Positions 17,918 to 22,591 of a stretch of DNA of 64,000 bases are shown here, one piece after another. The stretch is from sequence record OQ626344. One strand, written 5' to 3'. Origin of the DNA: Escherichia phage S127 BCL3. Position 1 is the stretch's first letter. Each line of letters starts with the position of its first letter. Position numbers and translations under genes: made by a program. The notes beneath the pieces are model-generated. The model was not told the DNA's origin. It did not search any database and saw nothing but the letters and a program-made list of their open reading frames with translations.

Positions 17918-17965
17918 TTTACTTTATTGATGGCCCTGGAGTCAAGGCCATCTAAAAATAAATTT
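17918..17965. repeat. 48-bp palindromic intergenic repeat R1 (TTTACTTTATTGATGGCCCTGGAGTCAAGGCCATCTAAAAATAAA), copy 1
   Basis: near-identical copies at 21924 and 22544; begins at the stop codon of the upstream minus-strand gene. Confidence 0.7.
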
Positions 17966-18165
17966 TACAGGCCTACAATCTCTTTAATTCGTTTTACTGC
18001 TGCCTCAGCGCCTTGAGGGTAAAAATTATGGTAACCAATCACGCGGGTAATACTGATCGCCACTTGATGATCTTCATAATCGCCTTTGAAGATTTCTTGA
18101 CCGTCAATCAACACGGCAATTTTTTCTTCTTTTTTGAAGTTAATAACGCGGATATTGTTGCTCAT
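17965..18165 (-). CDS. hypothetical protein
   Basis: 66-aa ORF; AAGGAGA RBS. Confidence 0.65.
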   Translation of the reverse strand: MSNNIRVINFKKEEKIAVLIDGQEIFKGDYEDHQVAISITRVIGYHNFYPQGAEAAVKRIKEIVGL

Positions 18166-18306
18166 TTTGTTTCTCCTTTTGGAACTTTGTCTATGTGGTG
18201 AGGAGTGTCTCCCCGTTGATTGTTATTATCCATATTCTGGATCTGATTGCAACACCCAGGGAGAAAAAAATTAAAAAGTTAGGCCCCCAGGGATCGGGGG
18301 CCGTTA

Positions 18307-18426
18307 TCAGTTACTTACAGCGATAAAATACATCCCTACGCCTAACAATATTTCAAGGGCGATGATCTCAAGCCATACCGTAACACGGCGCACCTTATCG
18401 GTGCGGGGCTTATCCTTGGGTGTCAT
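18307..18426 (-). CDS. small hydrophobic peptide (39 aa)
   Basis: ATG with AGGAGGAAAGGGGGAG RBS; TM-like core. Confidence 0.45.
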   Translation of the reverse strand: MTPKDKPRTDKVRRVTVWLEIIALEILLGVGMYFIAVSN

Positions 18427-18446
18427 CGTCTCCCCCTTTCCTCCTG

Positions 18447-18668
18447 TTAGCAGTTACGTGGTTTGCAATGGTCCCCAGGAGTATTATCACCACGCACATT
18501 ACAAGAAAAATTATCTCTGTCGTTGTTCGATCCATTGTTATAAAATTCCTTAAGATCAGGCCTGAAAATAAAGCTTTCGTTATTGAATCCATCCCGCCAG
18601 GCGGCTGGCTTCAAATCTTCACTAAATGGATTAATTAACGTGGTATTATTTAAACGGCTGGCCCACAT
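18447..18668 (-). CDS. hypothetical protein
   Basis: internal ATG with GAGGAA RBS; overlaps alternative frames. Confidence 0.3.
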   Translation of the reverse strand: MWASRLNNTTLINPFSEDLKPAAWRDGFNNESFIFRPDLKEFYNNGSNNDRDNFSCNVRGDNTPGDHCKPRNC

Positions 18669-19017
18669 ATTTTCTATTCCTCTCAAATAAGCGATCCGCC
18701 TCAGTTAAACAAATCTCATGGGCGTGATCTCTGGTTTTAGCTTCATCGAAAACCTGTTGTGCAAGGCTGCAACGTAGGGAGACTGGAAGATCACTATAAT
18801 AGGCGTTGACAAACGTTTGAGCGTCGTACAGGTCTGAAAATACTTTACCCTTTCTATTATTCCCCTTGTCAACAATTGCAAGGATAACCAATACAATAGT
18901 TGCAACCACTCCCAGGAAGATAGATATAATAAACCATAAAAAGGCGGATCTACCCATCTTGCCAGCGATCCAGGCGTTAAACAAGGCAACTAATATAGCC
19001 AAAATAATAAATTCCAT
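18646..19017 (-). CDS. membrane protein (two TM segments)
   Basis: internal ATG of ORF 18646..19155 with AAAGAGG RBS. Confidence 0.6.
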   Translation of the reverse strand: MEFIILAILVALFNAWIAGKMGRSAFLWFIISIFLGVVATIVLVILAIVDKGNNRKGKVFSDLYDAQTFVNAYYSDLPVSLRCSLAQQVFDEAKTRDHAHEICLTEADRLFERNRKYVGQPFK

Positions 19018-19039
19018 TCTATGTACCTCTTTTACAGTT

Positions 19040-19075
19040 CTGATTAACAATAAGGCGGCAAATATGCCGCCGCCT
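19040..19075 (-). terminator. putative terminator hairpin
   Basis: GGCGGC...GCCGCC stem with T-rich tail on minus strand. Confidence 0.35.
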
Positions 19076-19084
19076 GTTACCTGA

Positions 19085-19465
19085 TTAAAAATTATCGCCG
19101 TAAATCTTTCCGCTTTCTGCCCACACCACCACGCGGGGCATACTATCCCACACATCTTGTTTTAGATTGAGCGCGTGCAATTCTTCGGTGGTGCTCATAC
19201 CAGGCACGGGCTGATTGTATACTGCAAAACGACCACCTGCATAATCATAGGCCAGAGTTAAATCACACTGGATCATCTTTTTGATCATGGCGTTAAGCAT
19301 AGCGTTAGCCGCATATTGGTCACGTTTTAAAGGCAATTCTTTAATAAGTTTGCGATAGTTTTCGATATGGTCGCACACTGTTTCACGTGGAAGATCTTTC
19401 ATATCTTCACGGAATGTAACCAGGTTAAACATAACGGTGTCAATAGCCTTGGTGGTGTTTTTCAT
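19085..19465 (-). CDS. hypothetical protein
   Basis: internal ATG of ORF 19085..19501 with AAGAGGAAA RBS. Confidence 0.65.
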   Translation of the reverse strand: MKNTTKAIDTVMFNLVTFREDMKDLPRETVCDHIENYRKLIKELPLKRDQYAANAMLNAMIKKMIQCDLTLAYDYAGGRFAVYNQPVPGMSTTEELHALNLKQDVWDSMPRVVVWAESGKIYGDNF

Positions 19466-19555
19466 GATGTTTTCCTCTTTGTTTTGTGTGGGGCAAGTCA
19501 TCTCGCCCCCTTGATTTTTAATATAGCAGGTTTTTAGATTATTGCAACACTTTTC

Positions 19556-20179
19556 TTATGAAAAACTCATCTCACCATATTCATCTACATCAAACCGCCA
19601 GTCGTTGGCCTGGATGAGGTCGATCAAGGTCTCGACTGCAAATTGTTCGTCGTAGGCATTCTCCAGATCTACGTAAACCTTGCGAGAAATTTCTCTGACC
19701 GTCTCAGTGATCAACTCTTCCAGCTCTTCAACCTTGCTTTCTTGCTTGGCGGTCAGATTCAGCCAAGTAGTATCAATGTATCCGCTTACAGTGTTTTCGT
19801 GACTATGGCGGCTATATGGATCACGCTCAACACTTGCAGATAGCTCGCCATCGTGCATTGTGCCGAACAAGTGACGAATTGAGCGGAATTTAGTCAGAGA
19901 TTTGACTTTACGCAAGAATTTTTCTAAATCAACGTTTTCAGCACTGATTGACGCGCCGTCACCCTGGCACCAAAAGCCGGACCAATGTACTTCGGTATCT
20001 TCAAGGCCATACTCTGGAAAAACATATTCTTTATAGTATTCAATCACGCTTTCTGCAAAAAAGTTATCCCCGCTGTGTTCTTCTCTTTCGCGGACCATTT
20101 CAACGGCTTTTTCTTTTTGTTCGTCGGTCAGCACGTCGAAAGATAAGTTGTAACCTGTGGTAATGTTAACGGTGGTCAT
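19556..20179 (-). CDS. hypothetical acidic protein
   Basis: 207-aa ORF; CAGGAGAA RBS; HWSGFWCQGDG motif; no family recognised. Confidence 0.7.
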   Translation of the reverse strand: MTTVNITTGYNLSFDVLTDEQKEKAVEMVREREEHSGDNFFAESVIEYYKEYVFPEYGLEDTEVHWSGFWCQGDGASISAENVDLEKFLRKVKSLTKFRSIRHLFGTMHDGELSASVERDPYSRHSHENTVSGYIDTTWLNLTAKQESKVEELEELITETVREISRKVYVDLENAYDEQFAVETLIDLIQANDWRFDVDEYGEMSFS

Positions 20180-20207
20180 GATATTTTCTCCTGTTTTCTT
20201 TATTAGT

Positions 20208-20226
20208 GGCGGGAAGTTTTCCCGCC
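20208..20226 (-). promoter_or_regulatory. conserved leader stem-loop GGCGGGAA-N3-TTCCCGCC
   Basis: lies between promoter 20237-20264 and RBS; similar hairpins at 22336 and 23014. Confidence 0.5.
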
Positions 20227-21562: not shown

Positions 21563-21587
21563 GTTACTTTCTCCTTTCATGGTGTTA

Positions 21588-21630
21588 ATAAATTATCTTT
21601 ATAGATGGCCCTGCAGCCAGGACCACCGAA
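21588..21630. repeat. degenerate copy of palindromic repeat R1
   Basis: CTTTATAGATGGCCCTG...AAAAAATAA resembles R1. Confidence 0.35.
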
Positions 21631-21637
21631 AAAATAA

Positions 21638-21883
21638 CTATTTCACAATGCCTACAAAACAGATCCCGCCTTCCCCGACGTAGGCAATATCGGTCACTTT
21701 GTAGTCGGTCAAGATCTGTTTATTCAGATCATTAATAAAATCGGTCATTGCGTTGGTGTAGTTGTCTTCCATGTCTAGGGAATAATCCCAGGTGTAAACC
21801 TTTTTACGTCCGAAGCCTTTTACCATGATCCGGGCGCTTTTGGTGTTGGTAGGGGCATAGTATTTGGTGATTAGTGCTGCCAT
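21638..21883 (-). CDS. hypothetical protein
   Basis: 81-aa ORF; GAGGAG RBS. Confidence 0.65.
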   Translation of the reverse strand: MAALITKYYAPTNTKSARIMVKGFGRKKVYTWDYSLDMEDNYTNAMTDFINDLNKQILTDYKVTDIAYVGEGGICFVGIVK

Positions 21884-21923
21884 GGTTTTAACTCCTCATT
21901 AGTTCAGTGTTAACAGTGTAAAG

Positions 21924-21971
21924 TTTACTTTATTGATGGCCCTGGAGTCAAGGCCATCTAAAAATAAATTT
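21924..21971. repeat. 48-bp palindromic intergenic repeat R1, copy 2
   Basis: near-identical to 17918-17965. Confidence 0.7.
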
Positions 21972-22311
21972 ACTCGTTTTCTTCCAGTTCTGCAAGCTCT
22001 TCTTTCACTTCTTCGAGCTCTGTCTGCAATTCCTGGTATTCTTCATCGTCCTCAATATCCAGGCTGTCGATGTAGTCGCTAAATCCGCAACGGTAAGCGA
22101 TAGGATCTAGCTCCTTGAGGATACGCGACGGAAGAAAAGAAATGTTTCCGATCATGATTTCGCCGTAGACCTCGTCTAACCATTCATCATAGTTTTCGTC
22201 GTACTTGTCCTCGTCGATTTCAAAGTTATCGATCTTGTTCTCAAGGTCCGCGATCTGTTTTTTCAGTGCGGCAACCTGAATAGCTTTTTCTGCGGCGGTC
22301 ATAGTGGTCAT
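21970..22311 (-). CDS. acidic protein, predicted coiled-coil
   Basis: 113-aa ORF; AAGGAGAAAA RBS. Confidence 0.65.
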   Translation of the reverse strand: MTTMTAAEKAIQVAALKKQIADLENKIDNFEIDEDKYDENYDEWLDEVYGEIMIGNISFLPSRILKELDPIAYRCGFSDYIDSLDIEDDEEYQELQTELEEVKEELAELEENE

Positions 22312-22335
22312 GGTGTTTTCTCCTTTTGTGTGTTC

Positions 22336-22351
22336 TGGGAAGTTTTCCCGT
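22336..22351 (-). promoter_or_regulatory. leader stem-loop GGGAA-N3-TTCCC (shortened variant)
   Basis: same position relative to promoter as 20208 and 23014. Confidence 0.4.
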
Positions 22352-22362
22352 TTACGTGTTTA

Positions 22363-22390
22363 AGTATACCGATTTAAGTTAGCTTGTCAA
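22363..22390 (-). promoter_or_regulatory. sigma70-like promoter (TTGACA-16-TATACT)
   Basis: hexamers on minus strand upstream of 21970..22311. Confidence 0.5.
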
Positions 22391-22510
22391 TTAAAAATTT
22401 AAGAAAAATTTTGCAAAACTGTTAGCGCTACTCATTAACATTTGCGCCAGGATGTAACCGACAACGCAAACGATAATAGTTACCTTTGTGTATTGGCGTG
22501 TAGTGCTCAT
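22391..22510 (-). CDS. small hydrophobic peptide (39 aa)
   Basis: ATG with AAAGGGG RBS; TM-like core. Confidence 0.4.
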   Translation of the reverse strand: MSTTRQYTKVTIIVCVVGYILAQMLMSSANSFAKFFLNF

Positions 22511-22543
22511 CTTAAAGCCCCTTTTTCGCTTAACTGAGATTAG

Positions 22544-22591
22544 TTTACTTTATTGATGGCCCTGGAGTCAAGGCCATCTAAAAATAAACTT
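22544..22591. repeat. 48-bp palindromic intergenic repeat R1, copy 3
   Basis: near-identical to 17918-17965. Confidence 0.7.

Follow-up and report, generated by a model that had tools for sequence, protein, structure and literature searches.

The element called R1 is a palindromic intergenic repeat that directly follows stop codons in Escherichia phage S127 BCL3 (OQ626344). We analyzed one stretch of this record, 64,000 nucleotides long and referred to here as the window, in which R1 lies among small early genes on the minus strand. The window comes from an rV5-like Vequintavirus, as a megablast search with positions 17000 to 23500 matched more than 120 Vequintavirus genomes at 92 to 96% identity. 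Phages of this type are widely used as candidates for therapy and biocontrol, and hardly any of their early region has been annotated. Of the 10 proteins near R1 that we tested, none had a Pfam match above the curated score, and PHROG matches were only to families of unknown function.

A 26-nucleotide (nt) core of the repeat (TTGATGGCCCTGGAGTCAAGGCCATC) occurs exactly at positions 17927, 21933, and 22553, where 100 shuffles gave an expectation of 0. The full 45-mer starts at 17918, 21924, and 22544, and these three canonical copies, numbered 1 to 3 in that order, are identical. A repeat finder grouped with them a fourth, diverged copy at 21579 to 21641 that is 62% identical. An earlier reading of the letters alone (the first-pass annotation) had described three near-identical copies and one degenerate copy of a 48-bp unit. 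Its count was borne out by both the exact-core scan and the repeat finder. Its unit length was not: 45 nt are listed, and conservation extends over about 50 to 63 nt. The same annotation had R1 abutting the stop codons of minus-strand genes, and we found all four copies directly 3′ of such a codon (TAA at the canonical copies and TAG at the diverged copy; Table 1). At each of the four, a Shine-Dalgarno (SD) sequence and an ATG follow 25 to 40 nt past the hairpin.

With filters off, a covariance model built from the four copies found no others in the window; in the relative D1, whose complete genome is 137 kb, it found the four orthologous sites and nothing else. A whole-genome count, one of the checks proposed in the first-pass annotation, therefore gives four copies in that genome. 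Conservation in related phages had been proposed as a second check; by blastn, R1 is present in 120 phage records, mostly at three places per record. There was no blastn match in 5,426 complete E. coli genomes, and the exact core was absent from 185,579 species-representative genomes, so R1 is not host-derived. Rfam gave no gathering-level match in the window, and at permissive thresholds the hits over R1 were all sub-threshold noise. From IMG/VR, a 17-mer pattern scan recovered 18 stretches, of which the covariance model supported as real only those from two rV5-like contigs; the remainder were rejected as chance matches. In the literature, we found neither a description of R1 nor an rV5-like transcriptome. 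Judged from these searches, R1 is specific to rV5-like phages and previously undescribed.

The relative D1 is itself one of 17 records labeled “UNVERIFIED Campylobacter phage” (MG0656xx; others are A147, A12a, C5, and C12) that are 92 to 94% identical to rV5-like coliphages here. From this identity, the records are probably mislabeled or contaminated by E. coli phage.

RNA fold and its conservation

On the gene-sense strand, R1 reads 5′-(U)AA-AUUUAUUUU-UA-GAUGGCCUUG-ACUC-CAGGGCCAUC-AAU-AAAGUAAAYUU-3′. RNAfold gave this strand a single extended hairpin. Its lower stem is AU-rich and 10 to 11 bp long, and a 2-by-3-nt internal loop separates it from a GC-rich upper stem of 10 bp that ends in a tetraloop. 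The upstream gene runs into this hairpin, with its stop codon either at the foot of the lower stem or within it. The upper stem of the canonical copies contains one U.G pair, and their loop is ACUC. These copies fold at −24.8 to −25.6 kcal/mol as minus-strand RNA, with z scores of −4.2 to −6.0. The first-pass annotation had given R1 a 7-bp stem, which is correct for the plus strand, whereas the transcribed minus strand forms the longer, two-part hairpin described above.

The fold also differs between strands in strength. For copy 1, the complementary strand folds more weakly than the sense strand. Copy 3 scored 87 bits with the covariance model on the minus strand versus 35 bits on the plus strand. 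The diverged copy folds on the sense strand only, with −22.4 kcal/mol on the minus strand versus −10.3 kcal/mol on the plus strand.

We then aligned 56 instances of R1 (39 distinct) from 18 sources: the window itself, 10 phage records from public databases, and seven stretches (six contigs) of IMG/VR or metagenome origin. Standard pairs occupied 98.7% of the pair cells, and this fell to 36 to 55% when the 3′ partners were slid by one to three columns. Four pairs of the lower stem had changed on both sides (G-C/A-U/G.U; U-A/C-G; U-A/A-U/G.U/G-C; and A-U/U-A). The substitutions in the upper stem, about six independent events, all stay paired via G.U, U.G, or C-G, and they would become A.C mismatches on the opposite strand. 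At the diverged site, which lacks TTGAC, the changes form a stepwise compensatory series from A-U to G.U to G-C and from U-A to C-G. This implies that selection acts on the RNA fold itself and not on a promoter motif alone. Between genomes, the 45-nt core is 96.1% identical, versus about 90% for the flanks, which are mostly coding. Taken together, we are confident that R1 is a conserved RNA structure of the sense strand, and R1 is functional at the RNA level.

Transcription of the region and competing explanations

Behind the strong promoter at 23070, the minus strand carries in order the 134-amino-acid (aa) gene, R1 copy 3, the 39-aa open reading frame (ORF), the promoter at 22390, the 113-aa gene, and R1 copy 2. 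These are followed by the 81-aa gene, the diverged R1, two more genes, and a canonical intrinsic terminator. As this is the first canonical terminator downstream of copies 3 and 2 and the diverged copy, all three sit inside a multi-gene early transcription unit. The gene downstream of the diverged copy most likely starts at 21562. The genes after this copy have no good promoter of their own, and transcription must therefore read through it.

Table 1. Positions of the R1 copies and associated features in the window
Feature	Position	Strand	Details
R1 copy 3	22542–22592	−	TAA of 134-aa gene at 22590–22592; lower stem; upper stem at 22555–22578
R1 copy 3, promoter-like parts	22566–22571; 22542–22547	−	−35-like TTGACT; −10-like TAAACT
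R1 copy 3, downstream	22510 (start)	−	SD sequence and ATG of 39-aa ORF
R1 copy 2	21922–21972	−	TAA of 113-aa gene at 21970–21972; upper stem at 21935–21958
R1 copy 2, promoter-like parts	21946–21951; 21922–21927	−	TTGACT; TAAACT; next gene (81-aa) starts at 21883
Diverged R1	21591–21640	−	TAG of 81-aa gene (21638–21640) within lower stem
Diverged R1, upper stem	21604–21627	−	GGUGGUCCUG/CAGGGCCAUC; two G.U pairs; loop GCUG
R1 copy 1	17915–17967	−	TAA of 66-aa gene at 17965–17967; upper stem at 17929–17952
R1 copy 1, promoter-like parts	17940–17945; 17916–17921	−	TTGACT; TAAATT; next gene (101-aa) starts at 17880
Cassette between R1 copies 3 and 2	21969–22541	−	39-aa ORF; early promoter TTGACA-16-TATACT (22363–22390) with hairpin in the 5′ untranslated region (UTR); 113-aa gene
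Expression module of promoter, 113-aa gene, and R1	21924–22391	−	95.5% identity in phi92-like phage KKE7M
Canonical intrinsic terminator	20994–21013	−	GCCCCGCCATTGTGCGGGGC then TTTTTATTT; first downstream of R1 copies 3 and 2 and the diverged copy

The canonical copies contain TTGACT, an 18-nt spacer, and TAAACT or TAAATT, a sigma70-type arrangement that matches 9 of the 12 consensus positions. They align with the predicted early promoters of the window in the order of a stop codon, an AT-rich stretch, TTGACx, a −10 element, and a similar start region. Copy 3 has “TAAACT AATCTCA” where the promoter at 23070 has “TAAACT AATCACA,” and copy 1 has “TAAATT TAAACCC” where the promoter at 20264 has “TATAAT TAAACAC.” The 5′ arm (AAATTTATTTT) presumably also conforms to AAAWWTWTTTT, the consensus of the distal UP element, and its distance is about right. 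Based on these features, the canonical copies could well be active promoters, with a chance at or slightly below even.

It could then be argued that R1 is no more than an early sigma70 promoter, made up of an UP-like arm, TTGACT, an 18-nt spacer, and TAAAYT, and that the hairpin is incidental or matters at the DNA level only. The consensus match and the register with the neighboring predicted early promoters fit this explanation, as does the record of phage Gotham, in which copy 1 is annotated as a promoter by PhagePromoter. It also fits that the canonical loop varies only at the sixth base of the −35 hexamer and the next base, leaving TTGAC invariant. However, the diverged copy has lost the −35 element, with CTGGC instead of TTGAC (CTGGCT, CTGGTA, and similar), and still keeps both helices by compensatory or wobble changes. 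The wobbles work on the sense strand only, and a promoter has no need of the covariation in the lower stem. In addition, the 18-nt spacer and the 4-of-6 match at −10 make R1 weaker than every listed rV5 promoter. We consider it improbable that R1 is a promoter and nothing more.

Several other promoter-associated sequences were seen in the window. Predicted early promoters directly abut stop codons (TAA-TTGACA...) on the minus strand at 22332 to 22390, 20208 to 20264, 23014 to 23032, and 15378 to 15402. At about +10 of these promoters is a conserved family of 5′-UTR hairpins (GGGAAAACTTCCC or GGCGGGAAnnTTCCCGCC), which possibly stabilizes the 5′ ends of early mRNAs. Between R1 copy 1 and the next start codon, the minus strand has TGTTAAAATA at 17899 to 17908, an exact match to the rV5 “late promoter” motif, which was proposed as TggTAaAAtA (Kropinski 2013). 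The other R1 copies have weaker, GTTAA-containing versions of this motif.

Neither the upper stem nor the whole hairpin is followed by a U-tract on either strand. As its 3′ flank, the sense strand has AAUAAAGUAAA and the antisense strand UAAAAAUAAA, and both strands are T-rich before the hairpin and A-rich after it. A terminator scan of the window did not call R1, though it called the canonical terminators of the region, and neither of the terminator lists derived with ARNold, for rV5 and for HdK5, includes it. The first-pass annotation had judged that R1, without a U-tract, was not a standard intrinsic terminator, and the flanks, the scan, and the rV5 list all agree with that judgment. With no U-rich tract 3′ of the GC-rich hairpin, we rejected R1 as an intrinsic terminator.

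A less strict proposal is that R1 insulates neighboring early genes as a terminator or attenuator. The record of phage Murica has 45-nt “terminator” features on copy 1 and on the diverged copy, while the HdK5 record and the rV5 paper include R1 in neither their promoter nor their terminator annotation. The stable GC-rich stem is consistent with such a role. So is the case of the promoter-early stem-loop (PeSL) cassettes of T4-like phages, whose stem-loops are described in this way and of which one cut lacZ read-through as strongly as the rrnB T1 terminator (PMC2839356). However, the missing U-tract and the negative scan and lists speak against termination here as well, and the read-through required by the promoterless genes argues against efficient termination, which would silence these conserved genes beyond the diverged copy. 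This explanation is less probable still.

R1 might instead be an operator for a sequence-specific RNA- or DNA-binding protein, from the phage or from the host (e.g., Hfq or ProQ), that regulates how the flanking cistrons are translated or degraded. In its favor, the 45-nt identity of the three canonical copies exceeds what the fold needs, and the flanks are rich in U on the 5′ side and in A on the 3′ side. This identity is also explained by dual coding together with exchange between copies. The diverged copy changes many bases, including the whole loop, with the fold kept, which argues against strict sequence recognition. We also identified no candidate binding protein, with all neighboring genes in families of unknown function. 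We give the operator explanation only a slim chance.

A sliding-window scan for other long hairpins proved far too permissive to single any out, with 232 hits on the plus strand alone. Three further repeat features lie elsewhere in the window. Near-identical canonical terminators occur in pairs at distant sites (28452 to 28479 with 38596 to 38623, and 13617 to 13643 with 57649 to 57675). Their sequences are AAAAnGCCCCACCCTTTCGGGCAGGGCC and AAAAAGAAAGGGGCC...GCCCCTT, and they constitute another small family of repeated regulatory elements. A 64-nt near-perfect palindrome at 12813 to 12876 can form 26 to 28 bp at −27 to −33 kcal/mol on either strand, and just upstream of it is a short tandem repeat of the AACAATT type (12729 to 12764). 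Finally, a gene-free stretch of about 570 nt (24233 to 24799) contains dispersed direct repeats at 24465 to 24645 with a spacing of 65 to 74 nt (AAAATC...GAAAACGAAAAA...), possibly iterons or another regulatory array.

Recombination through R1

In phage ECP26 (MK883717.1) and in IMG/VR contig 2051223002_000007, the gene order is the 134-aa gene, R1, and the 81-aa gene, and the 573-bp cassette at window positions 21969 to 22541 is missing. The single R1 in both is chimeric, flanked on its 5′ side as in copy 3 and on its 3′ side as in copy 2. The identity of ECP26 to the window steps from 98% to 91.8% exactly at this chimeric R1 (2258 to 2326, versus window 22542/21981), and on this alignment the step is a boundary of mosaic ancestry. 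A second type of event was found in KKE7M (PQ356295.1), a phi92-like phage from another subfamily. KKE7M has window positions 21924 to 22391 at 95.5% identity, which is exactly the promoter, the 113-aa gene, and R1. The homology ends after the R1 lower stem on one side and just upstream of the −35 element on the other. The loop variants ACAC, ACGC, and ACTT recur at different sites in different genomes, which suggests exchange between copies or recurrent mutation. Since the copies provide 45 to 50 bp of identical DNA, they act as homology patches for the deletion, insertion, or exchange of gene cassettes. From these junctions, recombination through R1 has very likely occurred.

KKE7M shares other small early-gene modules with the window, at 15750 to 16028 (88%), 16168 to 16361 (92%), and 19099 to 19432 (74%). 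The comparison of KKE7M with rV5-like phages indicates that early orphan genes have been exchanged repeatedly between phage subfamilies. The 113-aa gene has distant homologues in other viral contigs, and no R1-like hairpin was found after them; R1 is thus not linked to this family of genes. For the 81-aa gene, homologues occur in unrelated genera and not in syntenic relatives.

The short genome of rV5_ev146 (LR699804.1) was considered as a case of R1-by-R1 deletion and rejected. Its two deletions, of 6.1 kb (14947/21074) and 0.5 kb (22498/23001), remove R1 copies 1 and 3 and have their end points outside R1.

The view that R1 is a selfish mobile repeat (MITE-like, i.e., resembling a miniature inverted-repeat transposable element, or a homing nuclease target) with no role in gene expression can draw on the identical copies, on their position at recombination junctions, and on the copy in a phage of another subfamily, but it is very improbable given only four copies at the same orthologous sites in about 120 genomes, in one orientation and a fixed stop-codon register, with a fold under purifying selection, no presence in host genomes, and, in KKE7M, movement together with a gene and promoter rather than alone.

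Proposed role and relation to known systems

The explanation we favor, and to which we assign an even chance, is that R1 is a composite cassette of the PeSL type, with a hairpin that serves early polycistronic mRNA as a processing signal of the RNase III kind or as a stabilizing signal. The selected core would be the RNA hairpin of the gene-sense early transcript, in which two stacked helices, together about 21 bp, flank a small asymmetric internal loop. This hairpin would mark the 3′ boundary of the upstream cistron. Most likely, it would be a T7-type substrate of host RNase III, a barrier to 3′ exonuclease, or both, and would separate and stabilize the cistrons without stopping transcription. 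In the canonical copies, a sigma70-type module would lie over the same bases, comprising an UP-like arm rich in A and T, TTGACT within the loop and stem, an 18-nt spacer, TAAAYT, and an early-promoter-like start, and it may re-initiate transcription for the downstream gene. The double constraint of fold and promoter would explain why the canonical copies are nearly invariant.

An RNA-processing site had been one suggestion of the first-pass annotation, and the likeness of the fold to T7 RNase III sites makes it plausible. Substrates of RNase III have about 20 to 22 bp of mostly unbroken helix, in many cases with an internal loop that limits the enzyme to one cut. Selection on the lower stem points toward RNase III, whose substrates need this stem; it would be superfluous in a promoter, in a terminator, or in a plain exonuclease block. 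Specific cleavage of R1 by RNase III is nonetheless a tentative proposal that we regard as somewhat doubtful. We consider it unlikely, though worth stating, that R1 is fully dual coded. The same 50 bases would then be a processing hairpin (for RNase III or another factor) for the upstream gene and a sigma70 promoter for the downstream gene, giving swappable units of promoter, ORF, and hairpin.

Several points count against the favored explanation. Our literature search found no transcript-end data for any rV5-like phage. The covariation comes from about four site lineages in closely related genomes, in an alignment fitted to the model, so part of the covariation count is shared ancestry. In phage Gotham, R1 copy 3 has a 5-nt deletion that destroys the upper stem, which means that this copy is dispensable there, that it is a decayed copy, or that the record has a sequencing error. 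The deleted bases are GGGCC (MT682716.1, 1139 to 1198), and the promoter spacer is shortened as well. On the promoter side, 9-of-12 matches are common in this AT-rich window (42 found versus 26.5 expected), the 18-nt spacer is suboptimal, and the promoter-like module is absent from the promoter list of the rV5 authors. Lastly, most indels in the region do not involve R1 (rV5_ev146, a metagenome contig, and the loss of a 116-aa gene). R1 is therefore a usable homology patch and not the sole crossover site. The first-pass annotation had raised the possibility of a recombination hotspot; recombination through R1 is supported by ECP26, the IMG/VR contig, and KKE7M, but “hotspot” is too strong when other indels bypass the repeat.

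Public records currently label R1 as a “promoter,” as a “terminator,” or not at all, and treating it as a conserved RNA structure gives annotators one label. With four sites and one natural variant without a −35 element, R1 is also a compact, testable model for overlapping RNA-structure and promoter constraints on phage intergenic DNA. If RNase III does cleave R1, this would be the second clear coliphage case, after the T7-like phages, in which early polycistronic mRNAs are organized by host RNase III sites. If dual coding is true, R1 would be an integrase-free, integron-like cassette system outside T4-like phages, and small early genes would swap by homologous recombination even between Vequintavirinae and Stephanstirmvirinae.

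Among known elements, intrinsic terminators share with R1 a GC-rich hairpin directly after a gene, hence the Murica annotation. In contrast, R1 is A-rich after the stem and has no U-tract, whereas the canonical terminators of this phage have clear T-runs. Repetitive extragenic palindromes and bacterial interspersed mosaic elements (REP/BIME) are likewise repeated GC-rich palindromes near stop codons that can stabilize upstream mRNA and serve recombination. Unlike these, R1 is absent from E. coli and other bacterial genomes, lacks the REP consensus, is phage specific, and has very few copies.

For the fold, the closest likeness is to T7. We folded the T7 early region around the five early RNase III cleavage positions (R0.3, R0.5, R1, R1.1, and R1.3; coordinates attributed to Dunn and Studier 1983). 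All five sites gave a lower stem, an asymmetric internal loop, an upper stem of about 9 to 13 bp, and a 3- to 5-nt loop. T7 gene 0.4 has its stop codon inside a lower stem, and the gene 0.7 stop codon lies directly beside one. The R1 repeat described here has the same fold plan of about two helical turns, an intercistronic position in an early operon, and a stop codon at the lower stem. RNase III accommodates about 22 bp of double-stranded RNA (PMC6212723), and the total helix of R1 (10 to 11 bp plus 10 bp around the 2-by-3-nt internal loop) matches this span. The T7 sites serve an early operon transcribed by host RNA polymerase, resemble one another in sequence as a family of the same genome, and in some cases overlap with minor E. 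coli promoters. R1 differs from them in having no sequence homology, an almost purely A-U lower stem, and copies that are far more alike, and its cleavage is only predicted.

The closest described analogue of R1 is the PeSL, an intergenic cassette some 60 to 100 bp long (Arbiol et al. 2010, PMC2839356; Comeau et al. 2014, PMC4122927). In T4-like phages, PeSLs run from an upstream stop codon in an AT-rich region to an SD sequence and ATG. [quoted passage not shown] They cluster among orphan genes, and recombination between copies shuffles the cassettes (PMC2839356; PMC4122927). The four R1 copies all begin with a stop codon in AT-rich sequence and end with an SD sequence and ATG. The stem-loop likewise lies at the promoter-like sequence, with TTGACT carried by the 5′ arm of the 10-bp upper stem and the loop. 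Small orphan early genes surround R1, and there are recombination indels and exchange between copies. The sigma70 match of 9 of 12, with its 18-nt spacer, is weaker than in PeSLs, and the diverged copy has no −35 element. At the level of sequence, R1 has every feature that characterizes a PeSL. The differences are that Vequintavirinae are not T4-like, that there are 4 copies and not dozens, and that the stem is not of the polyG/polyC type. R1 also differs in its extended AU-rich lower stem, which covaries and takes in the stop codon, and in lacking any feature suggestive of termination. Taken together, R1 is of an already known kind, the PeSL-like cassette, in a new variant, and with it the concept of a regulatory cassette that also serves as a shuffling site reaches beyond the T4-like phages.

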